From an uncultured Actinomycetes bacterium (GTDB taxonomy: Bacteria; Actinomycetota; Thermoleophilia; RBG-16-64-13), in the NCBI GenBank assembly GCA_963841735.1, contig CAWJDT010000001.1:1472001-1536000 (forward strand): a stretch of DNA of 64,000 nt. Direction: 5' to 3'. Positions 47,287 to 64,000 of this stretch are shown here, in pieces. The position numbers and the translations under genes are program-made. Position 1 is the stretch's first letter, and every line of letters begins with the position of its first letter. The notes under the pieces were generated by a model. That model was not told the DNA's origin. It saw only the letters and a list, made by a program, of their open reading frames with translations, and made no database searches.

Positions 47287-47533
47287 GGCCGTGGCTCCTC
47301 CTGGATGCGGACTGCTGGGACCGTCACATTATAATCGGTGGTCAGCGTCGGAGCGCCGCGGCTCCGGCATGGCGGCCATGCAGCAATTGATACAGCACCA
47401 GAGACAGCGCCGCGACGCCGGCCATGACCCCGTCCGGTAGCCTATCCAAGGGATCACGCTTACGCTCACCTTATCCCTAGTAACTAGGATGGAGGGCGAG
47501 CAAACAGGGATTGGCATTGAGCATGGAGGTGTC

Positions 47534-48778
47534 ATGGCAAAGACCAAACGCTTCAGGACGAGGCGTAGCCGGGTGACTTTGGCAGTCGTCGCGATCGCGG
47601 TACTCGCGCTGGTTGCGTGGTTGGTCTATCGGGGGATGGCCGGTGACGCCGTAGCCACGGTGACCTATACCACCGGGACCGTGCAGAAGACCACGCTCGT
47701 GTCTTCGATAGACGGCACCGGCAACATCGAACTGCCGGACACGGCCTCCGTGGCACCCACCGTATCCGGCGAGGTCTCCGATCTCCAGGTGAAAATGGGG
47801 GACACGGTGGAGAAGGAGCAAGTCCTCTTCACTCTGATCAACCCGCAACTGGACGTGGCGGTGGCCGAAGCGCAGAACGCCTACGACAAGGCGGTGCTTG
47901 CCGTCGACTCGGCCCGATTTGACCTCACCTCGGCGCAGACCAGCCTGGCCAGTTCTTACAACTCCGGCTCCACCGCGCTCACGATAAGGCAGTCGAAGGC
48001 CAGTGTCACCAGCGCCGAACTCGCGATCACAGCGGCGCAGACCGCGGTGACTTCGGCTCAAATAGCGCTTGACCAGGCCAAGGACGACGCAGCCGCACGC
48101 ACCGTGACCGCTCCCCTGGCGGGGGTGATCACGGCCCTTTCGGTCGAGGACGGCAGCACGGCCGGTGGTTCCGGCGGGAGCGCCGCCGTGACTATCACCG
48201 ACCCAGACGTCTACCAGGCCACCATCACTCTCGCCGAGTCGGACATCAGCACGGTGGAGGTAGGCCAGAGGGCCATGCTCACGTTCGACGCGCTCCCCGA
48301 CCTCAACTTGATCGGCCAGGTGACAAGGGTAGACACCACCGGGGCCAACGAATCGGGAGTGGTCTCGTACGGCGTGGTCATCACCCCCGAGGTGATGGAT
48401 GCGTCCATCAAGGGCGGTATGACGGTGTCGGTGAGCATCATCACTGCCACGGCGCAGGATGTGCTCGCGGTGCCCAGCGCGGCGGTCAAATCGTCGGCGG
48501 CCGGCAAGTATGTGCAGATCCTGGAGAACGGGCAGCCGGTCAAGGTTACCGTCGAGGTGGGGATGTCCAACGACGCCTACACGGAGATTACCAGCGGATT
48601 GACCGAGGGCCAGGAGATCATAGTGGCGACCACGTCGAGCGGCAGCACCGTTACCACCGAGAGCCAGCGCCAGGGGAACATGCTGGGGCAGGGCGGTTTC
48701 ATCATCGACGGCAACGGCCCGCCGGCCGGCGGCTTCCCGTCGGGCGGCGGAAGCTTCCCCGCCCCTCAGGGACAATGA
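47534..48778 (+). CDS. Efflux membrane-fusion / periplasmic adaptor (MacA-like)
   Basis: N-terminal TM, lipoyl half-motifs (VKMGDTVEKEQVL; APLAGVI), helical hairpin, EITSGLTEGQ. Confidence 0.88.
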   Translation: MAKTKRFRTRRSRVTLAVVAIAVLALVAWLVYRGMAGDAVATVTYTTGTVQKTTLVSSIDGTGNIELPDTASVAPTVSGEVSDLQVKMGDTVEKEQVLFTLINPQLDVAVAEAQNAYDKAVLAVDSARFDLTSAQTSLASSYNSGSTALTIRQSKASVTSAELAITAAQTAVTSAQIALDQAKDDAAARTVTAPLAGVITALSVEDGSTAGGSGGSAAVTITDPDVYQATITLAESDISTVEVGQRAMLTFDALPDLNLIGQVTRVDTTGANESGVVSYGVVITPEVMDASIKGGMTVSVSIITATAQDVLAVPSAAVKSSAAGKYVQILENGQPVKVTVEVGMSNDAYTEITSGLTEGQEIIVATTSSGSTVTTESQRQGNMLGQGGFIIDGNGPPAGGFPSGGGSFPAPQGQ

Positions 48779-49507
48779 TGGCGACGACGGCCGAGCCCGG
48801 CATGAACGGTCATATGATCGAGTGCCGCGACCTGACCAAGACCTATGTCTCGGGCACTGCTGAGACGCCGGCCCTCAGAGGCGTGAGTCTCACCATCGAC
48901 CCCGGCGAGTACCTGGCCATCATGGGTCCGTCGGGTTCCGGCAAATCGACGCTCATGCACATACTTGGCGCGCTCGACACGCCCACTAGTGGGCAGTACT
49001 TCTTCGAGGGTCAGGACGTATCGGAGTTGACCGATGACGAGTTGGCCGACATGCGGCGGACGCGCATCGGCTTTGTGTTCCAGTCGTTCAACCTGCTGCC
49101 CCGGGCCACGGTAATCCGCAACACCGTCCTGCCCTTGGTATACGCCGGTGTACCGCGCGCGGAGCGTCAGGAGCGGGCGGAAGCGGCGTTGCGCAAGGCG
49201 GGCCTGGAGGAGTCGCACTGGAACCATCTCTCCAACGAGCTGTCCGGCGGCCAGATCCAGCGGGTGGCGATCGCCCGCGCGCTTATCAACGAACCCGCGC
49301 TCATCCTTGCGGACGAGCCCACCGGCAATCTGGATACCCAGACGGGCGAGATCATCCTGGGCACGTTCGACGGAACTCAACGAGCGCGGTCATACCATCG
49401 TCCTCATCACCCACGAGCCGGCCATCGCCGAGAGGGCGAAGCGGGCCGTCAGGATCCAGGACGGACTGATAGTGAGTGATAAGCAGAACGGGGGGGTGGC
49501 GGCATGA
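48775..49507 (+). CDS. ABC ATP-binding protein (MacB NBD-like; frameshift near 49370)
   Basis: [33 protein letters not shown]; HTIVLITHE in the next frame. Confidence 0.88.
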
Positions 49508-50736
49508 AGATGATGGACGTCCTCGAAGAGTCGGTCATCGCCATCTCCACCAACAAGATCCGCTCCGGTCTCACCGTCCTCGGCATCGTCATCGGCATCG
49601 CCTCGGTCATCGCTCTCACCGCCGTCGGCCAGGGCAGCCAGGCTTCGATAACGGATAGCATCCAAGCGGCGGGAGCCAACCTTCTGACGGTATCGCCTGG
49701 TGCGTCTACAGGTTCCGGCATGGTGCGAGGGGCGTTTGGTGACGCGAAGACCCTCAAAGTCACCGATGCCGACGCCATAGCTCAATTGCCGCTGGCCGCA
49801 GCCTCGGCCCAGCAGGTGACCGGCCGCTACCAAGTGGTGACCACCACCGGCAACAGCAACGTGCAGGTCATCGCTACGACCACCCAATATCAACAAGTGC
49901 GCAACGTGGAGATAGCGAGCGGCACCTTCTTTTCCGACCAGCAGGTGGACGATTCCTCCAAGGTGGCGGTCCTCGGGTCGCAGGTGGCCACCGATCTCTT
50001 CGGTGACCCCGCCGCCGGCGGCACCGATCCCATCGGCACGACCGTCCGTATCAAAAGCGCTAAGTTCACGGTCATCGGGGTGGCGGCCTCCAAAGGAGGT
50101 ATGGGACCCGACACCGCCGACAACGCCATCTACGTGCCGCTCACCACGGGCCAGAAACTGCTGGCAGGTCAGAGCAAGTATCTGTCGCAGGTCAGCATAG
50201 AAGCGGTCGACGCGAGAAGCATGACGCAATTGGAGACGGATATCACCAGTCTGCTGCTCCAACTGCACGGCATCGCCGACGCGGACTCGGCCGACTTCCG
50301 CGTGATCAACCAAGCCGACCTCACCGCCACTATGACCTCCACCTCCCGCACGCTCACGCTGCTCCTGGCCGCCATCGCAGGGATCTCCCTGGTGGTCGGC
50401 GGAATCGGCATTATGAACATGATGCTCAGCACCGTCACCGAGCGGACTCGGGAGATAGGTCTGCGCAAGGCCATAGGAGCCAACCGTAGGGACGTGAGCA
50501 GCCAGTTTCTGGTAGAAGCCGTGATCCTGACCTTCATCAGCGGCATCATCGGTGTGGTGCTGGGCTGGTTGGTCTCGCTGGGCATCAGGCACTGGGGCGG
50601 GCTGGACACTGTGATAACCGCGCGGTGGGTGGTCATCGCCTTCGGACTGTCGGCGCTTATTGGCATCGTCTTCGGCTTCTACCCGGCGCGCCGGGCGGCC
50701 GGGCTCAATCCCATCGAAGCACTCAGATATGAATAG
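49504..50736 (+). CDS. MacB-type ABC permease
   Basis: [54 protein letters not shown]. Confidence 0.92.
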
Positions 50737-50739
50737 CCA

Positions 50740-51576
50740 ATGGAGGGCAAGGTAATGGCGAAAGGTCAGAAGCAGACACCTACGGGACGGCGCGCGACAT
50801 CCGACTGTCTCGGGAGACGCTCGCCAAGAAGAAGGGCCAGCTGGGGGCTGCTGGGTGTCGCCCTGCTCCTCATGGCGATGATCGCCGCCTCCGTCGCGGC
50901 CTGTGGCTCCGACACGGGGGCCGCCTCGGGCACCACGACGACGAGCGCTGTGGCCGACGCCACCGGCCAGACTGGGCCCCGGGGGCAGTTCCCTGGCGGC
51001 GCTGGGGGACCGATGATGCAGGGTGGCCTCCTCGCCACCACGGACGTCACCACCAGCACCACGCTCGCCCAGACCACCACCAGCACTCCGGCGCCGACGA
51101 CCACGACCACGCTGGCGGAAGGCAGCTACTCCGACGGCATCTATCTGGTGGGTACCGACATCAGCTCGGGCCTCTACAAGGGGACTGTGGATGACGGCGC
51201 CGGCCACTGGGAGATCTCGACCGACGCCAACGGAGAAAGGTTCGTCGCGAGCGGTGACCCGGCAGGCCAGTTCTACGTGAAGGCCACCAGCGGCTACTAC
51301 CTCCGGCTGACCGGAGTCACCATAGCGAAGGCGAGCACCACAGCTGCCGACCCGCTCCCGTCGAGCAACATCGGCGACGGCACCTATCGCGTGGGCTATG
51401 ACATCGCCGCCGGTTGGTATCAGGGGGCGGTGGACGACTCCATGGGCTACTGGGAGGTGACGAGCGACGCAAACGCCCAGAGCCTGGTAGCGAACGACTA
51501 CCCGTTGGCGCCGTTCACGGTGAAGGTGAAGAGTGGGCAGTACATCACGCTGCGGGGGGTGAGCATAGGGCAGTAG
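50740..51576 (+). CDS. Lipoprotein with two tandem DGxYxVGxDIxxGxY repeats
   Basis: VAAC lipobox, Thr-rich linker, repeats at about 51127-51324 and 51370-51567. Confidence 0.75.
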   Translation: MEGKVMAKGQKQTPTGRRATSDCLGRRSPRRRASWGLLGVALLLMAMIAASVAACGSDTGAASGTTTTSAVADATGQTGPRGQFPGGAGGPMMQGGLLATTDVTTSTTLAQTTTSTPAPTTTTTLAEGSYSDGIYLVGTDISSGLYKGTVDDGAGHWEISTDANGERFVASGDPAGQFYVKATSGYYLRLTGVTIAKASTTAADPLPSSNIGDGTYRVGYDIAAGWYQGAVDDSMGYWEVTSDANAQSLVANDYPLAPFTVKVKSGQYITLRGVSIGQ

Positions 51577-51584
51577 TCCAAGGT

Positions 51585-51630
51585 CTGGCGCTGTTGGGAC
51601 GGGGCGGAGCGGGAGCCAGGGGGTGAGTCT
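51585..51630 (+). repeat. Motif A copy 1
   Basis: CTGGCGCTGTTGGGACGGGGCGGAGCGGGAGCCAGGGGGTGAGTCT. Confidence 0.85.
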
Positions 51631-51652
51631 GAGACCGGACTGCGTGGGACGC

Positions 51653-52570
51653 CTAGGTCCAGGGCCCTCCAGGACTCCAAGTTCCTGTGGACCCGTTCTG
51701 GGCGGCCGCGCCTTCGAGAGCCGGCCACAAGAACGTCCTGATCGCGAGCACGACCTCCCCGAGTTCACGACCGGGGAGTCCGGATCGTTTGAGGAATCCC
51801 TCCCACTGCGCTCGCTTTGTTGCATCCTCGGCAAAGGCGTCGGTCAACCCTGTGGGGACATCCCTGGGGAGAACCGTATCTCTCCGGGCGAACGTGGCTC
51901 TAAGGGCTTCGACAAGAAGCGCACCCCGGAACGTGAACGAGCGTGCCATATCGGCGAGATCGTAGTAGTCCTTCATCCGACTGTTGACCATCCCCAGCTT
52001 CACTATGGTCTGGATCTTCTCCGCGGCGGCCGTTTCTTTGGGATAGCCGAGCAGGCGGGCGGGCCTGAGTCCAAGACCGGGGAGGAGCGCCGGGTAATCG
52101 ATCAGGTTGGCCGCCGGCGTGACGGCGTCGCCCACACCGATGTCTATCTGCACTTGCAGCCGGGCTTTGGTCAGGCTTCCAGAGAGCCTTACCCTGACGC
52201 CCCCATACTCAGTGTCCTCTCGGATCTCTTCGGCCGACACCGACGCGGGTTCAAAGACGATGCCGTCCTCTTCATCATCCAGCGCACAGACTGCTCGGAA
52301 GATGTCCGAGGCCGCCCCGACATTCATCGGCCCAAAGCCCAACAGATCGATGTCCTTGGTCGGCCGGTGGGGTTCCTCGGTCCATACGTAGAACAGCGAA
52401 GCTCCCTTGAGAACGAAACGGTGTCCGTGTTCGGTCCGAGACAGTCGGGATAGTAGGCGCTCTCGGGCATAGCGCTGGAAAACCGCCTCAGGGGTTTCGC
52501 CTCGCGTCCTCGCGATCTTAGTGAGCATCTGCCTGATCGATGCCGCCCGCTCTGAGGTCGCTTCTCCCAC
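51653..52570 (-). CDS. abiEii: AbiEii-family nucleotidyltransferase toxin (type IV TA / abortive infection)
   Basis: YARERLLSRL, FVLKGASL, RPTKDIDLL, QIDIGVGD, AEKIQT, SRMKDYYDL. Confidence 0.9.
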   Translation of the reverse strand: MGEATSERAASIRQMLTKIARTRGETPEAVFQRYARERLLSRLSRTEHGHRFVLKGASLFYVWTEEPHRPTKDIDLLGFGPMNVGAASDIFRAVCALDDEEDGIVFEPASVSAEEIREDTEYGGVRVRLSGSLTKARLQVQIDIGVGDAVTPAANLIDYPALLPGLGLRPARLLGYPKETAAAEKIQTIVKLGMVNSRMKDYYDLADMARSFTFRGALLVEALRATFARRDTVLPRDVPTGLTDAFAEDATKRAQWEGFLKRSGLPGRELGEVVLAIRTFLWPALEGAAAQNGSTGTWSPGGPWT

Positions 52571-52577
52571 GATGCTC

Positions 52578-53180
52578 CTACAGCAGCGATTCGAGATAGG
52601 GACGCATGACGTTCTGAACGCGGCAGACACAGGCGAAGCGCCAGAGATCGTCCATAGAGCACTTCTTCTGCCGCCAGCAGTCACGCAGGGCCTCAAGGGC
52701 GACATCGAGGCCGAGCTTGTTGCGATACTTGAAGCAGTCGGCAACAGTCTTGGCTGGTGAGTAGATGCGTACGGTCACTCCGTCGATGACGTGCTCCTCG
52801 ACGCCCTCCGCGTACGCTATCCCCGAGAAACGGACCACCTTGAGCGGTATGCGCCCTTCGCTAGCGGGCCAATCGGTGGGTTGGAGGGCGATCCATACGA
52901 GGTGGGGGACCTGGGTGGTTAGCTCGTGGTACTGCAGCGCCGAGAGCAGGCAGATCACACCTCGAGGCACCAGAGCGGCCGCCTCGGCGAGACTGGCGTG
53001 CTCCGACCGCGAAAGGTCGCTTCGGACGTAGAGGCCCCGAGCCGGTTGCTCCAGCAGGCCAGCGTCGCGTAGACGCGGAAGCTCACGTCGCGATAGGCCG
53101 ATAGCCTCCACGTCACGCGGCCTTAGGACGCCTCTTCGGGCGGCCAGTTCGAGGATACTGTCGACGACCTGTTGCTTCAC
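52578..53180 (-). CDS. abiEi: AbiEi-family antitoxin / transcriptional regulator
   Basis: N-terminal wHTH (RGLY), CLLSALQYHELTTQVP, YSPAKTVADCFKYRNKLG; GTG after GAGGAG. Confidence 0.88.
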   Translation of the reverse strand: MKQQVVDSILELAARRGVLRPRDVEAIGLSRRELPRLRDAGLLEQPARGLYVRSDLSRSEHASLAEAAALVPRGVICLLSALQYHELTTQVPHLVWIALQPTDWPASEGRIPLKVVRFSGIAYAEGVEEHVIDGVTVRIYSPAKTVADCFKYRNKLGLDVALEALRDCWRQKKCSMDDLWRFACVCRVQNVMRPYLESLL

Positions 53181-53220
53181 GTCGCTCCTCAGCGAAAGGT
53201 GACTCGTACCAGTTCGTTGC

Positions 53221-53249
53221 ATTCTGCCCATTTCCTATGTACTTGTCAA
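53221..53249 (-). promoter_or_regulatory. Promoter of abiEi-abiEii
   Basis: Minus strand TTGACA-17 nt-CAGAAT; the -35 overlaps an inverted repeat GTACTTG (53239-53245) / CAAGTAC (53269-53275). Confidence 0.6.
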
Positions 53250-53321
53250 TATCTATCAATGAATGGGGCAAGTACGCTCTCACCGTGGTGAGTCGGGGCT
53301 TACGTTCACGCCACTGACTTG

Positions 53322-53486
53322 TCAAAGACCCCGCAGTTCGCTTCGACCGCACGACGAAGCCTACGCCGCCAGGCTCGGTAGTGATGTGCGACTTTGGGTG
53401 GAGGTTGGCGCGCTGGGGTCAGTCCGAGCAACCGAGCGCAAGCTGGTCCGGAGTCCAGAGGGTCAAGCGGAGGGTTGGGGCCTCAA
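53322..53486 (+). repeat. Motif B copy 1
   Basis: Aligns by eye to 56616-56759: 38/47 identical in the left block and 27/33 in the right block. Confidence 0.75.
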
Positions 53487-53645
53487 AATCTTCCCTTGAA
53501 AGCAAAAGGCCCCGGCGCATTCGCCGAGACCCATCGCCGACCGAGAATCCCCAGTCCGTAGCCGGAGCATAGGTCGTGCCGTTGCGAGAGTCAACGCCTG
53601 GTTCGTGAGACTTTGGGTGCGTGTCGGCGCGCGCCCCGGTGCGCC

Positions 53646-54561
53646 TCACTCCAGCCCGAGCCCCGCCCGGATCCACCCGCCAGCCTCCCGCCCCCGCTCG
53701 TCCAGAGGCACCAGCTCCACCTCCGCTGCCGACGCTCGCTCCCACCCCCAGCTCCGCCGCCCGGCGAATCTGGTCCTGCTCGAAGACCGGCTTCTTCATC
53801 AGGCTCGACGCCCCGAACTCCCGCAGGAGCGCCACTCCCGCGGCATCCAGGGCCACCCGGTCGGCGCTCGCGAGCATGAGGCCCGGCTCGACCTCCGTCC
53901 CCTTGTCCGGTCCCCCGTCGACGAACGCCTTGGCCGCGTCCACGATCACGAAGTCCACGGGGTAGGAGGCGTTGATCTCGGCGATCATGAGCCGCTGGAA
54001 CGGAGAGCCATGGAGCTCATACATGTAATCGTAGAGACCGCCGGGCATCTTCTTGGCCACCAAGCCCACCGAGTTCTTGAGCGACATGGTGAAATGCCCC
54101 CCGAACCTGTGCGTCTTGAGGCAGCAGGTCTGGATGACGACGTCCGCCTCGAGCACCACCTTCGCCAGGTAGAAGCCCCTCAGCCAATGGGTGCCGCTCC
54201 GCTCGATGTGGACCCACCGCTCCTCGGGCTCCTCGTTCAGCACGACCACCTTGAAGCCCAGCTCCCCGGCGAGGGCGAAGATGCCCAGCTTCTCCAGGAC
54301 TTCGCGCGTATCGCCCATGCCGCTTCTCTCGGCCAGAGTGATCTCGCGCGCCCCGGCCTCCTTGAGGAGCTGGACGATGGCCCGGAGAGTGTCCGGGTGA
54401 GTGGAGGCCGGAAAGGCATCGGCGCTGTTGAAGTTGGCCTTGAGGGCCACGGTCTTGCCGGAGAGGTCGCCCAAGCCGCCATGCTCGAACAGGCTCCTGA
54501 CGGCCGCGTCTCTGTCCGAGGAGTCGATCAGAAAGACTGGGGAAGTGCCTTCGGGACTCAT
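53646..54561 (-). CDS. DUF362 domain protein (frameshift near 53733)
   Basis: VALKANFNS, STHP, AERSG, LKTHRFGGHFTMSLKNSVG, DRVALDA, QIRRAAELG; alternative frame ends ...GLGLE* at 53646. Confidence 0.85.
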
Positions 54562-54708
54562 GGGATCTACGCTCCCTTCTTGCCACCGTGCGACGCCGAC
54601 AGCCAGAGGCCGTTCTGTGAATGGTGGTACCCGGGGCGGTGGCCGGGTAGTCACCGGGGGGGGCACGGGCAGCGGGTCACCGCAGGAGGGACGGGCCTAG
54701 GGCAAATC

Positions 54709-54755
54709 CTGGTGCTGTTGGGACGGGGCGGTGACCGGGCGCCGGGGGTGAGTCT
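54709..54755 (+). repeat. Motif A copy 2
   Basis: CTGGTGCTGTTGGGACGGGGCGGTGACCGGGCGCCGGGGGTGAGTCT. Confidence 0.88.
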
Positions 54756-54873
54756 AGGCGCGGGGTGGGCGGGATACATATGAACGGCACCGTCTCGTCG
54801 TCATCATGTGGCATGTTCTTTGTCGAGAGTGTGGTGTGCACAGCAGGTGCGGCCGCGCCGGCCGACAAAACGC

Positions 54874-54921
54874 TTGCTATGACTGTCTGAAACGGTCATA
54901 ATGACCGTGTCACGTGGTCAT
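54874..54921 (+). promoter_or_regulatory. Promoter with two tandem palindromic operators
   Basis: TTGCTA-17 nt-CATAAT overlapped by ATGACT-N9-GGTCAT (54879-54899) and ATGACC-N9-GGTCAT (54901-54921). Confidence 0.8.
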
Positions 54922-54932
54922 CGGAGGGAGTT

Positions 54933-55544
54933 ATGTTCGACACGGGCGATACCATAAGGGAGGCTTTCTCCCTCCTCGGCGCCGCACTTGAGTCGCGCGA
55001 GTCCGGGCCCTACGAGATCGTGGTGGTCGGAGGCGCGGCATTGAGTGTCATCGGGGTTGGGGTCCGGGCCACGAAGGACATTGATGTCTTGGCACTGCGC
55101 AGTCATTCCCCAGGTTCACCAGCAACCGGACTCTTCAAGCACAAGCCGCTGCCCAGTGCGTTGCTGGAGGCAGCGGAGGCTGTCGAGCATGCGTTGGGCT
55201 TGGACCATGATTGGCTGAATGCAGGCCCGGCCGACTTGCTTGACCAGGGGATGCCCGAAGGCTTCGAGAGCCGGCTGACCTCGCAGCGCTACGGCTCGCA
55301 TCTCACCGTGTGGTTCCCGTCACGGGAGGATCTCATCTGTCTCAAGACCTACGCGGCGGCTGATACTGGCATCGGTCGTCACACTGAGGATCTGCGGGCT
55401 CTGGGGGCATCGTGCGATGAACTTCTGGTTGGGGCGCTCTGGGCTCGTTCCCAAGACCCCTCCGAGGCCTTTCGAGAGATGTTGACCGGTCTTCTGCGCC
55501 ACTTCAACTGTGACGAGGCCGCCAAGGAGATCGCAGGTGAATAG
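54933..55544 (+). CDS. DUF6036-like minimal nucleotidyltransferase (Pol-beta superfamily), putative toxin or antitoxin
   Basis: IVVVGGAAL...RATKDIDVL, DWLNAGP, DLICLKTYAA..D...RHTEDL. Confidence 0.78.
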   Translation: MFDTGDTIREAFSLLGAALESRESGPYEIVVVGGAALSVIGVGVRATKDIDVLALRSHSPGSPATGLFKHKPLPSALLEAAEAVEHALGLDHDWLNAGPADLLDQGMPEGFESRLTSQRYGSHLTVWFPSREDLICLKTYAAADTGIGRHTEDLRALGASCDELLVGALWARSQDPSEAFREMLTGLLRHFNCDEAAKEIAGE

Positions 55545-56553
55545 CATCACTTTGATTCAAGAGAATCTGCGTGACAGGGTACTTGATCTTGCGTGGCGGC
55601 AGTGGAGTTCCATAGGGCTCGCTGGGACGAGAGAGGTGTCTCGGACCCTCGTCGACCCCGAAGCACTGCTGGTTGCGTCAATGACTCTGGGGCGTCGCGA
55701 CGCGCGCCTGTTCGATGAGATCCTAGATTGGCTCGTCAAGAATGCATCGCTTCTGGACCTTGCGCGGCTGCGCAGAATCGCCCGCCGGGCTACCTGTGAG
55801 GAGCGAAGACTGCTGACTGCCGCGACGCACTATGCGGCAGAAAGCGGAGGCGCGGCCAACCTTGCCCGGCTTCTTGATGGCCTAGACGCTCAGGCCGGTG
55901 AGCGCGAGATAGGCGAAGAACCTTTGTTTCTGTCCGAGGGAGAACCTGGGAGAAGCTGGACTGAGCCTGATGCGGCATTTGCCGCCATGGGCTTCTTGCG
56001 TTCCCGGGTAGAGCTGCGGGGGATGTCCACGAAACCTCATTTCTCCAATCCTGCCTGCCTGCGTTTCAAGGCGCGTGCTCTCGCGGGTCAGGGGTCCCGG
56101 GCCGAAGTGCTCACCTACCTGCTCACCCACGACTGGACTCACGGCAGACTCATCGCCGAGAGGATCGCCTACGGACAGGCGCCGGTCGCGGCCTATCTCT
56201 CCTCCCTTCAAGAGGCAGGCTTGGCCGATCGCCGAGAAGAAGGTAAGAAGGCGCTGTACCGGCTGGCCGGGGGATTGCGGGCCGGCTTCCCCGACCTGCC
56301 GTTATTTGTAGACTGGGTCCAGCTTTGGTCCACGCTTGTGACCATACTGACGGATCTGGAGCATGCTGAGGCGCCCGAGCAAGTGGTATGGATGCGACTC
56401 GCCGAATCGCTAGAGAAGCACCGCTCCGGACTTCGAGCCGAAGGGTTTGAAGTAGAGGTCGGCGAGCTACGTGGTTGGGCTCGGCAGGGTCCGGAAGTCC
56501 TTGCGTCGGCTGTGGAAAGACTGACGGCCAAGGTGGCGGATCTTGCCGAGTAG
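55537..56553 (+). CDS. Hypothetical protein with C-terminal winged HTH, partner of the NTase
   Basis: GTG overlaps the NTase stop; WRQWSSIG, DPEALL, RLFDEILDWL; wHTH-like EVLTYLL...LIAERI...LSSLQEAGL...YRL. Confidence 0.7.
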   Translation: MNSITLIQENLRDRVLDLAWRQWSSIGLAGTREVSRTLVDPEALLVASMTLGRRDARLFDEILDWLVKNASLLDLARLRRIARRATCEERRLLTAATHYAAESGGAANLARLLDGLDAQAGEREIGEEPLFLSEGEPGRSWTEPDAAFAAMGFLRSRVELRGMSTKPHFSNPACLRFKARALAGQGSRAEVLTYLLTHDWTHGRLIAERIAYGQAPVAAYLSSLQEAGLADRREEGKKALYRLAGGLRAGFPDLPLFVDWVQLWSTLVTILTDLEHAEAPEQVVWMRLAESLEKHRSGLRAEGFEVEVGELRGWARQGPEVLASAVERLTAKVADLAE

Positions 56554-56615
56554 CAGCGTCGGGGTGCCGCCCTTCGCTTGATGCCGGCTTGGCGCCGGGT
56601 ACACCGCTTCGGTTT

Positions 56616-56759
56616 TCAAGGGGCCCGCGGATCGCGTCGACCGCACACGGAGTCTACGCCGAGCCGTCGCATGCGGCCCTAGGTCCTTGGTTTGACCTTG
56701 GCGCACTGCACGAGGCCTGTTCGCGATCCAGAAGGTCGATTGGAGGGTCGGAGCCTCAA
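56616..56759 (+). repeat. Motif B copy 2
   Basis: TCAAGGGGCCCGCGGATCGCGTCGACCGCACACGGAGTCTACGCCG...TCCAGAAGGTCGATTGGAGGGTCGGAGCCTCAA. Confidence 0.75.
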
Positions 56760-56787
56760 GGCCGCCAGACGGCGCGACCGCCCGAGA

Positions 56788-57160
56788 GGGTGCCGCTCCG
56801 CTCGATGTGGACCCACCGCTCCGCGGGCTCCTCGTTCAGCACGACCACCTTGAAGCCCAGCTCCCCGGCGAGGGCGAAGATGCCCAGCTTCTCCAGGACT
56901 TCGCGCGTATCGCCCATGCCGCTTCTTTCGGCCAGAGTGATCTCACGCGCCCCGGCCTCCTTGAGCAGCGTCACGATGGCCTGGAGACTGTCCGGGTGAG
57001 TGGAGGCCGGAAAGGCATCGGCGCTGTTGAAGTTGGCCTTGAGGGCCACGGTCTTCCCGGAGAGGCCGCCCAAGCCGGCCTTCTCGAACAGGCTCCTGAC
57101 GGCCGCGTCCCTGTCCGAGGAGTCGATCAGAAAGACCTGGGAAGTGCCTTCGGGACTCAT
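56788..57160 (-). pseudogene. 3'-truncated second copy of DUF362
   Basis: About the first 124 codons only; homology ends abruptly after HIERSGT. Confidence 0.88.
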
Positions 57161-57306
57161 GGGACCTCGCTCCCTTCATGCGACCGTGCGGCACCGGCGG
57201 CCAGAGGCCGTTCTGTGGATGGTGGTACCCGGTGCGGTGGCAGGGTAGTCACGGGGGCGAGGCGGCCGGCGGCCCGTCGCAGGGCGTACGGAGCCAAGGG
57301 CAAATC

Positions 57307-57353
57307 CTGGTGCTGTTGGGACGGGGCCGTGAGCGCGCGCCGGGGGTGAGTCT
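57307..57353 (+). repeat. Motif A copy 3
   Basis: CTGGTGCTGTTGGGACGGGGCCGTGAGCGCGCGCCGGGGGTGAGTCT. Confidence 0.88.
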
Positions 57354-57434
57354 TGGCGCCAGCCTCTCGGGAAACCACGAGGGAGCGCCTTCTCCCCTTC
57401 TCTAGGGCGCCGGTGGCGATTCGCCAGGCTGAGT

Positions 57435-57851
57435 TCAGTGAATCTCGTGAAGCGTTTCGCAGATCCGGTCTAGCGATGCGGATATCCTTGTTGGGGTGCA
57501 CTCGCAGGCCCAGAGCATGACCACGGTCCATCCGGCTGCTCTCAACCTGGCATCGTTGTCCCGGTCCCTCGCAATGTTCGCCGCGATCTTGGGCGCCCAG
57601 TAGTCCTCCCGAGATTTTGGAATGTGGCCGTCGTAGCACGTGTGCCCATGCCAGAAGCAGCCGCGGACCTGAACGGCCGTCTTGTACTTCGGGAAGACCA
57701 GATCAGGCTTTCCAGGAAGATCTGCGACGTGCAATCTGTATCTAAGACCCCTGGCAAAAAGACCTCGTCGGACAGCCATCTCCGGTACCGTGTCTTTGGA
57801 GCGTATCGCTCTCATTACCTCAGATCGCTTCTTCTGCGAGAAGACGTCCAT
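57435..57851 (-). CDS. vsr: Very-short-patch repair endonuclease
   Basis: MDVFS..KRSEVMRAIRSKDTVPE, LPGKPDLVF, GCFWHGH, YWAPKI..N..RD, GWTV..LW.CE. Confidence 0.92.
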   Translation of the reverse strand: MDVFSQKKRSEVMRAIRSKDTVPEMAVRRGLFARGLRYRLHVADLPGKPDLVFPKYKTAVQVRGCFWHGHTCYDGHIPKSREDYWAPKIAANIARDRDNDARLRAAGWTVVMLWACECTPTRISASLDRICETLHEIH

Positions 57852-57855
57852 GTGG

Positions 57856-59010
57856 CTAGAGCCCGAGGGCCCGCCGGATCGCGCAGGCGAGATGCCAGGC
57901 CAAACGGGGAGGGACGGCATCACTCACAAGACGGATTTGGGCACTCATGTTGCCTGTCAAGCGGTAGTGTTCCGGGAAGGACTGCAGACGCATGGCCTCA
58001 TAGATGCTGAGGCGTCGCTGGCCGCTGGGATGTACGTGCACTTCTCTGTGGCCGTATGCAACCGTCCAGCTTGGCCTATCCCAGGCGAGTGTTCGGAAGC
58101 TTCTACCCCACGCTTGACCTTCGACCAACGAATCTTTCGACGCGAATTTGGAGGACCTTGGCACCAGGCACCAGTGGTTTGGGTGAATCGGAAACGTTTC
58201 CGGGTCAAGGCCTGGGGCATTGAGGCGAGGCTCCGGCAGACCGCCGATTGCGTCGCGAACCGTACGGGTGGTGTGCTCTGGCTCAGGCCACTGGAAGTCC
58301 GCGGTGGGGTGCAACTCCTTATTGACCCCCACTATCAGGATTCTCGGTCTCTCCTGGGCGACCCCGTAGTCCGCGGCGTTCAGAAGCCTGTCTTTGACTT
58401 CGAAACCGGCGTCGGCGAACAATTCCTTGAAGCGCTCATATCGCGCGGCATGCTTCCTGCCTAAGAGCCCCGCGACGTTCTCAAAGACGAAGAACGAGAT
58501 CGGACGTCTTCGATTCAGCGCGGTCAGGAGTGCCGCGTAAGCTTCGGGCAGACTGTGTCGGGGATCGTCGTCGCGCTGATGAACATTTGAGACGCTGAAG
58601 CCTTGGCACGGAGGCCCGCCCAGGACGCCAACTGGCTCCATGCGGCGCCCTAGCAGCTCGTCCAGATCTTGCACAGCTAGGTCACTGATGTCTCGCCTCC
58701 ACGCCTTCGCTCCGGGATGGTTGAGAAGAAAAGTGTTGATCGCCTCTTGCTCAACGTCTAAGGCAAGTGCCGTGGAGAATCCTGCCTGTCGGAATCCCTC
58801 ATCCAGTCCGCCCGCGCCGCAAAACAGGCTGAGCACCTTCAGAGATCCGTCTGCATTCGCTACCCGTGGGAATGAATAATCTTGCGCGGCTCGAAGGAGC
58901 TCCATTCTTGCCCAAGCAGCAGTGGTGAGTCCGCGTGTTGCGGCGACTCCATCGAGAAGCTGCTTCTCCTCCTCGTCTGCGCGAATCATAATCTTGTGAT
59001 CTCTGGCCAC
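57856..59010 (-). CDS. dcm: C5 cytosine DNA methyltransferase with N-terminal ribbon-helix-helix-like extension
   Basis: Motif I LSLFCGAGG, IV GGPPCQGFS, VI FENV, VIII QERPR, IX/X RRLSIYEAMRLQSFP...AVPP. Confidence 0.92.
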   Translation of the reverse strand: MARDHKIMIRADEEEKQLLDGVAATRGLTTAAWARMELLRAAQDYSFPRVANADGSLKVLSLFCGAGGLDEGFRQAGFSTALALDVEQEAINTFLLNHPGAKAWRRDISDLAVQDLDELLGRRMEPVGVLGGPPCQGFSVSNVHQRDDDPRHSLPEAYAALLTALNRRRPISFFVFENVAGLLGRKHAARYERFKELFADAGFEVKDRLLNAADYGVAQERPRILIVGVNKELHPTADFQWPEPEHTTRTVRDAIGGLPEPRLNAPGLDPETFPIHPNHWCLVPRSSKFASKDSLVEGQAWGRSFRTLAWDRPSWTVAYGHREVHVHPSGQRRLSIYEAMRLQSFPEHYRLTGNMSAQIRLVSDAVPPRLAWHLACAIRRALGL

Positions 59011-59148
59011 CTTGGCTCGCTTTCAGGCTGGCGTATAGCATTGCTACCCGGCTCGCCATCACCATACAAGCCAGCTCAACACTGGTCAAGCGGTCTCCGC
59101 CGTAGTTTGATAGGGTGTTAGACACTCGGGTTGAGGGAAAGGCTAGCC

Positions 59149-59946
59149 ATGCAGGGGAAACACCCAGGCAGCGCCGCAGAGAGTATTCTTGCTGTCCTGC
59201 GAGACTACCCTGAGGGGCTGGACATACACCAGATCATGGACTTGTGCCCTGAAGAGGGGAACCAGGCTCATTTCACCCGGCGGCTCCGAGAGCTCTATCC
59301 CTTCCACAGAATAGCCCGGTCCCATGAAGGTCGTCGGTTTGTGTACCGGTACCTGGGGCCAAAAGCGGAGAATGAATGGGACCGGGGAGAGATCTCGGCC
59401 CGAGTCCGGGCGCAGGTTCTTCACCAGGCGGGCGGCAAGTGCCGGATGTGTGGCCGGAGTATTGCTGATGACGGCGTCAAGCTAGTTGTCGACCACAAGA
59501 TTCCGAGATCCTGGGGCGGGCTGGGCGTGGCCGATAATCTTTGGGGTATTTGTGAGGAGTGCAACGCCGGTAAGAAGAACTACTTTGCCAGCTATGACTC
59601 CCTCACAATGAAGACGGTGCTGGCCATACCGTCGGTTCACGAGCGGATTCTTCTGCTGTTGGCTCTCCAGCAAGGGGCTTGGGTAAGCAGCGATCTCATC
59701 GAGTTTGTTGCGAATTTCGACGACTGGCAACAAGACTGGCAGAAACGTCTGAGGGAACTACGCTATTTCGGGCTTGATATCGCTTCGAAGAGGCATAAGG
59801 TCGGAAAGCGTTTCGTGTCGATGTATAGGCTAGATGAGCTGGTTGACAAGCTCCCGCCAGATCTGTCTCATGCCGCTCGCGAGTATGAGCGTACTCGAGC
59901 GGCTATCAACGCACTGGGGGGAGCGGAGGATGGCGGGGCCGGATAG
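59149..59946 (+). CDS. HNH endonuclease flanked by two wHTH-like domains (putative cognate restriction enzyme)
   Basis: CRMCG...VDHKIP..WGG....NLWGICEECNAGK; repeated RRLREL / KRLRELR helices; divergent from dcm. Confidence 0.82.
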   Translation: MQGKHPGSAAESILAVLRDYPEGLDIHQIMDLCPEEGNQAHFTRRLRELYPFHRIARSHEGRRFVYRYLGPKAENEWDRGEISARVRAQVLHQAGGKCRMCGRSIADDGVKLVVDHKIPRSWGGLGVADNLWGICEECNAGKKNYFASYDSLTMKTVLAIPSVHERILLLLALQQGAWVSSDLIEFVANFDDWQQDWQKRLRELRYFGLDIASKRHKVGKRFVSMYRLDELVDKLPPDLSHAAREYERTRAAINALGGAEDGGAG

Positions 59947-60644
59947 GACCTCGGGCGGTCGCAGCCCTGCATCTGGCCCGACGGCCACGAGCGAAGGTTC
60001 GTGTCGGCTTACCAATCTGGCGAAGTTGTCAGGCAGAGAGAAACCCTCTACGCGCGTGGTTTCCGCGCGCGCGGGTGCGGGGCGCGATAGGGTTGGCCCT
60101 TGTGTGGAGCAACGCCAGAGTCGTCGAGCAATGACCATGGCGGCATTCTGGCTCCTCGGCTTGCTGAGTGGCCAATGTCGAGCAGAGCGGCGAATCTCTG
60201 CCTGGCCCGGGGAGGACAGGCATCAACTCAGATACTTCGACGCTCCTGAGTCACCGGGGAAACTTGGGCCCATCTACCATGCCCCTCTTGCGTAGCTCAC
60301 GGCCCCGATGATACAAAAGCGACAAGTCATGTTTGTGGGTGGTCATAAGCGGGTGGGGATCCGAGCGGGAGGCATATTGGGGGGATCGCGAGAAGGGAAG
60401 TCCAGCAGGGCTTTGGCCGATGTCGGCTGCTGCCATCAGCACCGCTGAGCGGCTCCGAGCCCGCAGGCCGAGCGGATGACAGCTCCGGACGGCTCCGAGA
60501 AGAGACGCAGACCCTTGTGCTGTCCCTTCTGGCAATGGTGGTAGCCTCGAACCATGCCGATTGCGCCATGCGGGATGGCTCAGGACTAGATTACTGGATG
60601 CCTAGCAGATGGTTGCCCAGTTGTCGTTCATAGGAAGGTTGTCC

Positions 60645-61901
60645 ATGCTGAACGAAGATGAGCCCCTCAGTGACTTGGCCGGATGGTCCGCGCTTACCGA
60701 ATTGGAGCGTGGGCAGTTGATGCAGCGTGTCGTAAGCCAGTTCGGTCAAACCAATGATCCCGCCGCCACCGCCGCGCTTGCGATCGCTCTGGCGGGCTCT
60801 GGAGACCATTGGCGCTGGCCCACCGAATGGGTAACGAGTGATGTGCCCTCGACTGGAGGGGCGGGCTCTCTAGTCACGCTGGTCTGCCCGCCCATCCTTG
60901 CCTCCTGCGGAGCCAAAGTACCGAAGCTAGGTGTCCCAGGTGCCACCGCGGGCGCCCTCGATGTTCTGGCCCTTCTCGGAGGCTACCGTGTTGAATTGAC
61001 CTATGGGGAAGCCAGGCTGGCGCTGGAGGACTCCGGCGTCGTAAACTGCGCAGGGACAGATGCACTCTGTCCCGCCGATCGGGACCTTTTCAGGTACAGG
61101 GTGCAGGTTGGTATGAAGTCATCCCCGTCTCTCGTGGCGGCTAGTCTTCTGTCTAAGAAGCTTGCCGTTGGATGTCTCTCCGCCGCCCTAGAGGTTCGCT
61201 GCGGCATGTCCGGCAATGTGGGGCATGGACTTTCGTCTTGCCTAGAGTTTGCAGACCTGTTTCGCTCCTCCGCCAGGCTTGTGGGAGTCAAATGCGGCTG
61301 CGTTATAACGCGGACTGACCCTCCCGCAACTCCGCTCTTTGGGAGACTCGAGAGTCTTCAAGGAGCCGTGAGTCTACTGCGGGGTGATACCACTGACGAG
61401 TGGAATTCGGCTCACGCTGACAATTGCCTGATGTGCTCTGCGGTTGCGCTGCTTGCCGCAGGTCTCGCAGATTCTCAGCGCGAAGCGAATCTGCGCGTGC
61501 GGGAGGCCTATGAATCCGGACGAGCGTACGACACGTTTCTGAGGAACTTGAGGATCCAAGGTTCATCCGAAAAGGAGCTTGGCGCATACCTCAATGCACC
61601 GGTCCGGCATGTTGAGATCGCCGCTTCTTGCGCTGGCTACGCGCATTACTCTGCGATTGTTCTTCGAGAGATGTTGACAAGGGCCAACGGAGTGCACGTC
61701 GATGCCTTCGGACTCCGGGCTGTTGTGATGCCAGATCAGTGGGTGGAGAATGGCGATATCCTGGCGCGGATGCGATATCGGCCGGAGGCATCCTCGACCG
61801 AGGTCGAATCGGCCGTCGACCGGCTCCGACGTTCAATGCTTGTCATGCCTGAGCCAGCCGGGGTCGAAGAAAAATATAGCGCCGTCGTGGTGCGGCCCTA
61901 G
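60645..61901 (+). CDS. Divergent thymidine/pyrimidine-nucleoside phosphorylase-like protein
   Basis: DVPSTGGAG, VPKLG, LCPADRDLFRYR, SLVAASLLSKKLAVG, LEVRCG, C-terminal VENGDILA domain; ATG after AGGAAGG (alternative start 60609). Confidence 0.8.
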   Translation: MLNEDEPLSDLAGWSALTELERGQLMQRVVSQFGQTNDPAATAALAIALAGSGDHWRWPTEWVTSDVPSTGGAGSLVTLVCPPILASCGAKVPKLGVPGATAGALDVLALLGGYRVELTYGEARLALEDSGVVNCAGTDALCPADRDLFRYRVQVGMKSSPSLVAASLLSKKLAVGCLSAALEVRCGMSGNVGHGLSSCLEFADLFRSSARLVGVKCGCVITRTDPPATPLFGRLESLQGAVSLLRGDTTDEWNSAHADNCLMCSAVALLAAGLADSQREANLRVREAYESGRAYDTFLRNLRIQGSSEKELGAYLNAPVRHVEIAASCAGYAHYSAIVLREMLTRANGVHVDAFGLRAVVMPDQWVENGDILARMRYRPEASSTEVESAVDRLRRSMLVMPEPAGVEEKYSAVVVRP

Positions 61902-61918
61902 GATAGGGGGTACGGGTA

Positions 61919-64000
61919 ATGAGTGAGTACGCTTGCTTCTGGCACCCCCAGCAGAAGGGTCCCTCACTGGATGACCGGTGCCCGCTTTGCGAGAGGCCGT
62001 ATCGTCGGCCTATTGAGACGCGATATCTCCCAGAATCAATAAATGGATTCATGGTTGAGAGCGGCTTGGGTCGCGGCTTCTACAGTGCGGTCTTCGGCGT
62101 GCGCCGTGCCAATCGTTCAACCCGGTTTGCCATGAAGGTGATTCCTGTGGACTTCTACCGGCCGCGCTCCGAAGGAGGGATAAAGCCTGACGGAAAGAGC
62201 ATTGAGCAAGAGATAGAGATCCACGAACAGCTGTCAAAACTCCCAGCTGTTGCTAGCTATGTGGATGATGGGGTTGGCACGATTGAGTTCGATGGCGTTC
62301 CAATCGAATGCTACTGGATTCAGATGGAACTTGCTGAAGGGCCTACCCTGGGTGAGTTGCTAGAAGACGCGCCATCATCCGCGAAGCAGGTCGCACAGAT
62401 CGGATTGGATCTGCTGTCAATCCTGTCGATGCTAAATGACTTGGGCGAACATCATAATGACCTTCATCCGGGCAACATCATCGTGACGTCTTTGGGGCAG
62501 GCAAGAAGATTCGGGGCTATCGAGCCCGATACCCAGGTGAAAGTGCTCGACTGGGGGTCAAGTGCGGATGTCTCACGGTCAGATAACGAGCCCGACAATC
62601 CCGGGGACGTGCGGCAAGTCTCGGCGCACATATTGGATCTGCTGGACGCCCTCGCGAGATCAGGGCTCCGTGAAGACACACAGCAGTTGAACTCCGACTA
62701 TCGTTTTGCCTCTAGCCTCTACAGCCTCTTCTTGTCGTACGGCCGCAAGGACTTGATGCACCCGCTGAGCGCCGAAGACGTGCAAGAAGACATGCAGATT
62801 GCCTATCAGCGCTCGAAGAACCCAGGGTTCACTCCGCAGGGCTTGTCCTCAGTTGCTTCCCACTACAATGCGACCACTCTGGATGCGGCACTCGTTCAAA
62901 GGTTGCTGGTCGATCCGGGGGGAGAATGGGAGCGAGTGACGAGCGATCCCGGACCGCTTGTCATCACTGGCATGCGGGGGTGCGGTAAGACTCATCTTCT
63001 CAAGTCCTTCTGGTGGAAGGCACGGCTTCAGGCCTTGACGCCCAGGGCGCGGCACCAGTTGATCTCCCGGAGCGCCTCCTGAAAGATCCATTCGTCGGAT
63101 TCTACGTGACTTGCGACTTTCTGAGCCGCGCGAGAAGCACATCGAGGCTGAGCTTGCTCGTTTTGGCGTATGCGTACGATGCTCTGGAGGCCTTGGATTG
63201 GACCACCGCCCTCGGGGATTCGCACATCGACTACGGACAACTTGGTGGATTGGTGGACACGCTGGTCCGACTCATACCATGGTATGAACCACCACGTCGG
63301 CGTGAGTCAGTTACGGCGATACTGGATAGCATCAAGCGGGCGATATATGTGAGTCCGGCGGATTCGAAAACTGATGTTGACAGGGGAGCTTTTGAGCAAC
63401 TGGCTGCCGCCGTTACGCCACTTGTTGACTTTTGGAACAACAAGAGGGTTTTGTTCTTGTTGGATGATGTATCACGTCATCTAACCCCGACTGAGACCTT
63501 CGAGCTATTCGACCAAGCGCTTGTGCCACATGCGATGTACGCCTTCAAAGTCTCAGCAGAGACTCTGACTATGGAGATACACTCGCCAGGAGGTCCGCCG
63601 GCCTTGAGCGGGCGAGACTATCGCGTATTCGACCTGGGTCAGCTCGTCCTGGACAAGCTCGGTGGTTCTCAAGGGGTTGAGTTCGTTGACACCGTGCTGT
63701 ACGTCCGCGCGACATGCGTTGATGGACCCCAAGAGAGACCACGATACGTTCTGGGCACTAACCCGCTTGTGTCGATTGCGCGTCGTATTGGTGATCCCGC
63801 TGGTAGCCACGACGACATTTACTGGGGTATCAACGCTCTGGCCGCCATGTGCTGCGGGGACATCGGAGACATCATCCTACTGTACTCACGGATCACCAAT
63901 CCAAGGTCAATGGACAAGGCCCCTGAATTGCCGCTTGAGTCCAGGCACCAGCACAAGGTGATCGTCGAGTTTGCCAAGGCCAAGCTGAAGAACCTTTATT
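61919..64000 (+). CDS. Ser/Thr-kinase-like domain fused to ORC/CDC6-like P-loop ATPase (frameshift near 63050; runs off window)
   Basis: LGRGFYSAV, FAMKV, HNDLHPGN, VLDWG; Walker A GMRGCGKT; manual translation from 63061 stays open to the edge with FVGFYV, Walker B VLFLLDD, FKVSAE, GRDY..FDLG, YWG...CGDIGDII. Confidence 0.82.

Follow-up and report, generated by a model that had tools for sequence, protein, structure and literature searches.

How do unrelated defence genes come to lie side by side in one place of a bacterial chromosome? Defence islands turn over fast, and how modules enter and leave them without mobility genes is poorly understood. The question is raised by a stretch of 64,000 nt (the window) in the metagenome-assembled genome (MAG) of an uncultured soil actinobacterium (GCA_963841735.1; 2.8 Mb in 8 contigs). 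The window covers positions 1472001–1536000 of contig C1 (CAWJDT010000001.1). The source genome is labelled G000 here, other G numbers stand for related genomes and L numbers for loci, L001 being a locus of G004. Three co-oriented copies of a short element, named A, set apart an AbiEi/AbiEii pair, a DUF6036 nucleotidyltransferase (NTase) pair and a Vsr/Dcm/HNH block in the window. Genes were called by Pfam and PADLOC profile searches of the window open reading frames (ORFs), and their functions are predictions from these matches. The region is best explained as a hypervariable defence and toxin-antitoxin (TA) island between conserved chromosomal flanks. With a probability of about one half, its modules were stacked by homologous recombination of the Campbell type at frame sequences that they share; A would then be a portable junction element, of as yet unproven activity. 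The lineage provides a readable record of such turnover: an oriented repeat marks the module borders, parts of flank genes (DUF362, a PyrK-like gene and dnaE) are duplicated, and two genomes share one frame but differ in cargo.

Repeat-delimited modules in one chromosomal slot

A direct repeat of 574 nt (54189–54761 versus 56788–57359, 91.6% identity by repeat search and blastn) brackets the NTase cargo. The repeat is composed of A and the first 480 nt of a DUF362 gene, and a third copy of its distal 39–48 nt was found at 51585–51630 with 77–87% identity. The three A copies of the window all lie on the plus strand. A1 (51573–51649, nhmmer E 2.5e-13, also seen in the junction alignment) carries the boxes CAAGGTCTGGCGCTGTTGGGAC and GAGTCT, and is followed by A2 (54696–54774, E 7.3e-13), which lies in the first repeat copy, and by A3 (57290–57372, E 4.1e-14). 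All three were significant after one nhmmer iteration, far past chance. The tandem, repeat-delimited units described in the initial annotation are therefore real, with three A copies, a 574-nt repeat and distinct cargo in each unit.

The DUF362 gene with the full domain is located at 53419–54666 on the minus strand (Pfam 6.5e-45, profile positions 1–199 of 200). Its true start is probably near 54567, as suggested by alignment with the 343-aa ORF of L001. Similarity to its relatives, which come from uncultured Actinomycetes and Actinomycetota MAGs, stops at 53638. The second copy (56756–57160, minus strand) matches profile positions 1–81 of 200 only. In its junction sequences, an 11-nt filler joins the 5' 480 nt directly to the gene's 3' end and flank. 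Thus this copy, previously taken as truncated, is indeed partial, but it arose by internal deletion and has kept its 3' end and flank. The deleted DUF362 copy of G004 has the identical breakpoint and 11-nt filler. A DUF362 5' fragment in G009 (L109, 18945–19426) is cut about 25–30 nt from the G000/G004 breakpoint and about 60 nt from the 3' end of an A copy.

A second motif, B, had been proposed as the other border of the cassettes, and this assignment did not hold. As a 34-mer B is weak (79%), and it is part of a 150–170 nt similarity between 53319–53486 (B1) and 56613–56759 (B2), with 65% identity and an E value of 1e-09 in a small search. A hidden Markov model (HMM) of B found no G000 copies beyond the two in the window. 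Outside G000 it matched an orthologous copy in L001 and, weakly, a site just 3' of DUF362 in L002. Since B is limited to two copies in the genome and to DUF362 3' sites in L001 and L002, it is the gene's own 3' flank, diverged between the copies, and not a dispersed border motif. The third slot contains no B, as first noted. This slot is not open-ended, however. Extending the search for A to the right revealed an inverted copy at window-equivalent 66018–66082 (C1:1538018–1538082), about 2 kb past the window, which closes it.

The comparison with the congener G004 shows what is fixed and what is exchanged at this locus. Core DNA of the two genomes is 92–97% identical where aligned. The left flank is conserved and encodes a HlyD-like protein, an ABC ATPase, a MacB/FtsX permease and a 278-aa protein (47489–51576, plus strand, Pfam). 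Window positions 47459–51582 match G004 at 84.5% over 4.1 kb, and the match stops exactly at A1. The right flank is orthologous from window-equivalent 65992, just outside the inverted A, again with 92–97% identity. Read in the direction of DUF362, the G004 island begins with an inverted A, an MT-A70 methylase and a split BglII-like nuclease, followed by A, the deleted DUF362 copy and AbiEi/AbiEii. Next come A, an intact DUF362 of 343 aa, HicA, an AbiEi-like gene, a DUF362 3' fragment and a NYN gene, and then A with a third DUF362 copy and more genes. Compared with the window, an MT-A70/BglII-like restriction-modification (R-M) system takes the place of the Vsr/Dcm/HNH and Ser/Thr-kinase-AAA genes, AbiE occupies a different slot, and HicA and NYN genes are additional. 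G004 has the same flanks and the same A-DUF362 frame with other cargo, so the slot is truly hypervariable. The earlier proposal of one hypervariable defence slot stacked in tandem is borne out by this comparison. Two further observations concern the G004 cargo. The MT-A70 methylase is accompanied by a BglII-family nuclease that is broken into two ORFs (L001, 5207–6692). The tblastn match of AbiEii (L001, 8841–9883) falls into two pieces in different frames, which indicates a frameshift in the toxin gene in one of the two genomes.

The cargo of the first slot begins past GGGA at 51649, according to the junction alignment. It contains the predicted AbiEii toxin, a nucleotidyltransferase (51653–52744, minus strand, Pfam 3.9e-40, PADLOC 2.9e-97), and the predicted AbiEi antitoxin and regulator (52578–53231, minus strand, Pfam AbiEi_4 8.5e-12, PADLOC 5e-82). 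The true start of AbiEii is probably later than the ORF start, since family matches begin at residue 65 (PADLOC) or 96 (Pfam). A sigma-70-like promoter was predicted for AbiEi at 53249–53221 by promoter scan. A winged-helix (wHTH) regulator and a toxin in adjacent, overlapping minus-strand ORFs (53231–52578 and 52744–51653) are the arrangement expected of an AbiE type IV TA system, and the pair is predicted to be one.

The second slot contains the AbiEii-like DUF6036 NTase (54933–55544, plus strand, Pfam 9e-10) and a 347-aa partner (55510–56553, plus strand), which gave a sub-threshold match to a TrmB wHTH domain (E 0.0051) and no PADLOC match. This pair recurs in contig C3 of G002 with 75% identity, where it lies between ordinary genes without A. 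The similarity of the module (54873–56564) to the G002 copy starts at 54873, where a sigma-70-like promoter site (54874–54902) begins, suggesting that the module travels with its own promoter.

The third slot starts with the R-M-like genes vsr (minus strand), a Dcm C5-methylase (minus strand) and an HNH nuclease (plus strand) at 57435–59946, called with Pfam and PADLOC. In PADLOC, Vsr matched at 2.6e-29 and MTase_II at 1.7e-78, and the HNH protein matched REase_II weakly (4.6e-05). Of the parts of a candidate type II R-M system with Vsr repair, the methylase and Vsr are thus clearly assigned and the nuclease weakly. A 430-aa protein with a glycosyl-transferase-family-3-like domain follows (60609–61901, plus strand, Pfam 3.6e-12, no PADLOC match). 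The last gene encodes a predicted Ser/Thr-kinase-AAA defence-type protein (61919–64000, plus strand, PADLOC CARF_STK_AAA positions 1–374 and 370–693) and continues beyond the end of the window. It is broken into two overlapping ORFs at 63013–63082, by a frameshift or a sequencing error.

Copies, borders and distribution of element A

Alignment of its copies defines A as a discrete, non-coding element of 70–90 nt, with the boxes CAAnATCTGGTGCTGTTTGGAC and GAGTCT about 27 nt apart and a spacer free to vary. G000 contains 21 copies (nhmmer, one iteration, E up to 1e-3). Besides the three in the window and the inverted one, ten co-oriented copies lie at C1:386–436 kb, three at C1:1558–1564 kb, two in dnaE-derived ORFs and one at C1:303 kb, and a half-length match lies on C5. 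The copies fall in at least four islands packed with defence or TA genes and gene fragments. The frame is therefore not local to one locus, since A occurs throughout the genome and the genus. Dispersal of A, unrelated to cargo borders, had been named as a finding that would speak against the cassette interpretation. A is dispersed, yet it is placed at cargo borders.

The other arrays are filled with similar kinds of genes. The slots at C1:417–436 kb hold a HicB-like gene, DUF2007 with TIR, a Kelch-GYF protein, an XRE regulator, a DUF4143 ATPase, an Eco57I-type methylase fragment, a deaminase-HATPase protein, a duplicated PyrK-like gene, an ABC ATPase, Mrr and HicA. Those at C1:1558–1564 kb hold BrnT, a NYN fragment, DUF4352 and an OLD-type TOPRIM protein. 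In G012, six co-oriented A copies are spaced 0.8–1.2 kb apart and reach a core aminotransferase gene; their slots contain a Dcm/HNH block, MazG and Schlafen-helicase fragments, DUF3800 and a PIN/MazE pair.

Junctions were located by alignment between relatives. In G004 the AbiE module adjoins an A2-type element, and in the window an A1-type element; the join comes directly after GGGA, 19 nt past GAGTCT. At three other sites divergence begins 4–6, 6 and about 45 nt past this box. At one other A site the variable segment measures 115 nt in G000 and 2.8 kb in G004. No clean case of an empty versus a filled A site was found; at panD, only panD itself is conserved in the relatives.

Four A copies are read through by a long ORF, and all four are in dnaE. 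In the 1471-aa dnaE product of G012, A is in frame and encodes residues 1121–1140. The site is inside a disordered, proline- and glycine-rich insertion of about 120–150 aa between the finger and HhH domains, a feature of dnaE across the family (for example at L100, 774–5189) that is missing in G025. The A-coded segment was found in 7 of the 17 dnaE loop loci tested, from genera g1, g9, g12, g17 and g18. A protein alignment of 10 dnaE sequences showed it at that position in two, both from genus g1. Coding and intergenic copies share the same unit boundaries, and judging from these A is an old, discrete and insertable unit.

The distribution was surveyed in 61 genomes including G000 with a sequence-only covariance model of A. 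Matches were obtained in 17 of them: G000, 10 of 15 congeners and 6 of 21 genomes from other genera of the family. The 24 genomes surveyed from seven further families of this class gave none. Five congeners also gave no match, but as their assemblies consist of 150–370 contigs, absence is not established for them. Another match lies within 10 kb for 69 of the 101 listed matches. Neighbours no more than 6 kb apart are co-oriented in 37 of 41 pairs, and in 13 of 13 within G000. When 185,579 species genomes and IMG/VR were searched for one exact 20-letter form of the box, 41 loci were recovered. A full A is present in only three of these, which all come from MAGs of uncultured Actinomycetes; the three viral contigs lack it, as do the other non-actinomycete loci with the exact core. 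By these surveys A is restricted to this family and is common mainly within this genus. Its copies lie at the borders of modules and keep one direction within an array. The conservation of its boxes, its discreteness and its co-orientation argue that it may be recognised by a protein.

Several other identities for A were examined and rejected. A structured RNA or riboswitch was ruled out, because Rfam gave no match at E up to 1 in window 50000–64000 and RNAalifold gave no consensus structure on either strand. An attachment site derived from a tRNA or transfer-messenger RNA (tmRNA) was ruled out as well: no tRNA lies in the window, nor less than 15 kb from any of the 12 A positions examined, and the tmRNA is on another contig. 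A small ORF is indicated in some copies by a Shine-Dalgarno sequence and GTG, but indels break the frame across copies. The G-tracts required for a G-quadruplex are not kept in several copies. Many A copies contain AGATCT, the BglII site; a link to the BglII-like nuclease of G004 is probably a coincidence.

How the modules may have been stacked

The preferred explanation is that homologous recombination did the stacking and that the boxes of A are recognised by a protein. The island would grow and reshuffle by recombination through shared frame sequences. One frame would be long and gene-derived, consisting of the upstream region and first 480 nt of DUF362 together with the 3' flank of the gene (B). 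Incoming DNA carrying a copy of this frame beside foreign cargo would recombine with the resident frame, through a Campbell-type single crossover of a circle or through unequal crossing-over. The outcome would be two direct copies of the frame with new cargo between them, of which one DUF362 would stay intact and the other would decay. A would be the other frame; its conserved boxes may be recognised by a protein and in this way promote or guide joining.

Stacked partial copies of a gene are known to result when DNA that contains part of the target gene integrates by a single (Campbell-type) crossover, or from unequal crossing-over. Such stacks were found at two further genes. A PyrK-like oxidoreductase gene beside the 417–436 kb array is duplicated within the array; it is present in two copies in G000, five in G010 and four in G014, and the cargo between the pieces measures 2–6 kb in G010 and G014. 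At the 3' end of dnaE in G000 (C1:1565476–1582770), the main copy is followed by fragments encoding aa 846–1382, 1222–1410 and 1222–1470, with cargo between each. These stacks, like that of DUF362, probably arose by the same route. Homologous recombination through the DUF362 5' region, already suggested in the initial annotation, is the simplest source of the 574-bp repeat and agrees with the similar stacking at the PyrK-like gene and dnaE. The repeat and the two stacks are best explained as direct traces of frame recombination. The duplicated PyrK-like gene of G000 is also split by a different dispersed repeat of about 160 nt (C1:429843–430005), which looks like a miniature inverted-repeat transposable element (MITE) and has many copies in G000, G005, G010 and G014.

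Several points weigh against this explanation. Homologous recombination alone does not account for the discreteness of A, its near-invariant boxes and its free spacer. It also leaves unexplained that the variable DNA starts 4–45 nt from the 3' box of A in four comparisons with a conserved 5' side. A 70-nt element at 75–90% identity is a poor RecA substrate. The C1:435667 copy has its variable DNA on the 5' side of A instead of the 3' side. No single event reconstructs the history linking the arrangements of G000 and G004. Moreover, recombination is deduced here from assembled sequences.

Alternatively, A may be the attachment site of a new integron-like cassette system, a reading that we regard as doubtful. 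A recombinase encoded elsewhere in the genome would insert circular cargo beside A, leaving one A per cassette and producing co-oriented strings of A and cargo, and the duplications of DUF362, the PyrK-like gene and dnaE would be side effects. A would then be an asymmetric recognition site, with two boxes and no hairpin, of an undescribed trans-acting cassette-recombination system in this Actinomycetota family. The co-orientation of neighbours, the dense arrays of small TA cargo in G012, the two-box form of A and the clustering of cargo junctions just 3' of GAGTCT are consistent with this. The same cargo (AbiE) is found behind different A subtypes, and cargo modules occur elsewhere without A, which suggests that A is part of the insertion site rather than of the cargo. 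Integron arrays without a nearby integrase are known (CALINs). If this reading is true, a trans-acting A system builds integron-like defence arrays at several chromosomal loci and has left one site in frame in dnaE, and its mechanism would be none of the known ones, whether integron, Xer or the attachment types of tyrosine and serine integrases.

Several results weigh against this reading. The window has no match to PF00589, PF00239, PF01548 or PF01797, in agreement with the earlier statement that it lacks a recombinase. G000 as a whole has eight PF00589 matches, of which a single one is on C1, at 810 kb, and one PF00239 match on C5 (C5:265839–267593). No integrase or resolvase gene (PF00589 or PF00239) was found near the arrays in the six genomes checked (G000, G012, G004, G001, G014 and G009). 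The best 11-nt dyad with a 4–10 nt spacer scored a mean of 7.00 of 11 in 17 A copies versus 7.25 in shuffles. No single-strand DNA hairpin exceeded shuffles in 16 folds of eight copies on both strands (z −1.66 to +0.99). An attC-like hairpin and a dif-like dyad are thereby ruled out for A, which upholds the earlier remark that the units have no attC or dif signatures. The junctions vary by tens of nucleotides. Only one A was detected in the 34 kb around the five PyrK-like pieces of G010, so stacking occurs with few or no A between the pieces, and a full A was not seen in the viral contigs or the other non-actinomycete loci with the exact core. Site-specific integration at A, the other route proposed initially, is thus not supported: no enzyme, symmetry or fixed crossover point backs classical site-specific recombination at A.

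Other mobility genes of G000 showed little relation to A. It contains six IS110-family copies, none of them in the window or beside A; one lies between two A copies, 12–14 kb from each. Five of the IS110 copies, 1.6 kb long, are more than 99% identical (C1:403272, 810717 and 1356160, C5:150986, C6:30990), and three of these five adjoin tyrosine-integrase genes or fragments. On C5, only 20 nt separate the end of the serine recombinase gene from a 3' fragment resembling tRNA-Val, and the half-length A (model positions 29–79) comes next (C5:265839–267662). A matching 5' half was not found on that contig, and the link of A to this recombinase is weak. A search for PF04986 (IS91-type/Y2) gave no match in G000, to which no weight is attached because the control genomes gave none either.

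It is clearly unlikely that A is a small non-autonomous repeat, MITE-like or similar to the Rickettsia palindromic elements, that is or was mobile and landed in tolerant DNA. Its copies would accumulate in islands since insertion there is harmless, and would mark borders only because repeats promote rearrangement. The in-frame copy in the disordered dnaE loop (7 of 17 loop loci), the equal boundaries of coding and intergenic units, the variation in copy number from 0 to 21 among relatives, and the different 160-nt repeat active in the same genomes fit this reading. In contrast, A showed neither terminal inverted repeats nor target-site duplications, no clean empty versus filled site was found, and PF01797 (the RAYT-type Y1 transposase) had no match in G000. 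Random insertion would not yield 37 co-oriented pairs among 41.

It is very improbable that A is a regulatory or insulating site acting in cis, to which a host protein binds, and that it heads or separates acquired modules and is conserved for expression control. Two boxes with a variable spacer suggest protein binding; A is often upstream of a divergent gene (DUF362, ROK or PanD), and in seven copies a co-oriented gene begins 102–195 nt downstream. However, sense and antisense orientations of the cargo relative to A are about equally frequent, two A copies of G012 have no gene between them, and one copy is inside a coding region. No sigma-70-like promoter was predicted in A, while the AbiEi and NTase genes have their own. 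Among nine DUF362 upstream regions compared, A is present in four (G000 and G004) and absent from five, which rules it out as the native promoter of that gene.

Finally, a mis-joining of strain haplotypes of one slot into a false tandem can be dismissed almost entirely: the genome is a MAG, known from assembled sequence alone, but it has only 8 contigs in 2.8 Mb, its repeat copies differ by 8% and each have unique flanks, and the independent MAG G004 has the same deleted DUF362, with the same breakpoint and filler, beside an intact one, so the tandem structure is not a mis-join.

Comparison with known systems

Frame-mediated homologous stacking, with A at the junctions, can be set against several systems described in other bacteria. 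The available portions of the literature on integron-like defence cassettes, accretion of cis-mobilisable elements, plasmid dif modules, minimal mobile elements and defence hotspots contain no description of A that we could find. To our knowledge, integrons have been reported as essentially absent from Actinomycetota. If A is the target of an enzyme, it represents a new cassette-capture system in this phylum. If it is not, the islands are a clear case of the stacking of defence alleles by homologous recombination.

The A arrays resemble integrons and CALINs in that short co-oriented sites part small, exchangeable modules in which defence and TA genes abound, and in that arrays can lack a nearby integrase. 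The attC sites of integrons are imperfect inverted repeats that fold as a single-strand hairpin, and A has neither the palindrome nor the hairpin. The cassettes here carry their own promoters and may hold several genes in either direction. No IntI-like gene lies near the arrays examined; the PF00589 matches of G000 and of five congeners are all distant from them.

REP, BIME and REPIN sequences and the in-frame Rickettsia palindromic elements are short dispersed repeats specific to lineages. A resembles them in being such a repeat with one copy tolerated in frame in a protein. It differs from them in that it is not palindromic, no RAYT Y1 transposase was found, and its copies are clustered in islands and co-oriented.

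The plasmid dif (pdif) sites moved by Xer recombinases are 28 bp long, dyad-like and alternating in orientation, whereas A is about 75 nt long, asymmetric and co-oriented. The Xer dif layout of two inverted 11-bp arms with a 6–8 bp spacer, tested as a generic layout and not as the host's own dif, is not matched by A either. The pdif modules of Acinetobacter, moved by XerC/XerD (PMC6449649, PMC13141974), are similar to the modules here in their size of 1–5 kb, their TA and accessory genes, their short bounding sites and their independence from a module-borne recombinase. Tandem accretion of integrative and cis-mobilisable elements (CIMEs) (PMC5704250) provides another parallel: att-like direct repeats flank integrase-less tandem cargo, as the direct copies A1–A3 do here and as the 574-bp repeat brackets the NTase cargo. 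In contrast to CIMEs, no integrase-bearing relative element using A was found near the arrays searched, and A occupies many chromosomal sites instead of one attB.

Defence hotspots flanked by core genes and the minimal mobile elements of Neisseria, which are exchanged by homologous recombination (PMC10250203, PMC3787668), share further features with the island. They too are described with conserved flanks, strain-specific cargo and no mobility genes in the slot. The island described here differs from them in that alternative contents form a tandem stack, accompanied by partial duplicates of the flank gene, and in that a dedicated repeat lies between the modules.

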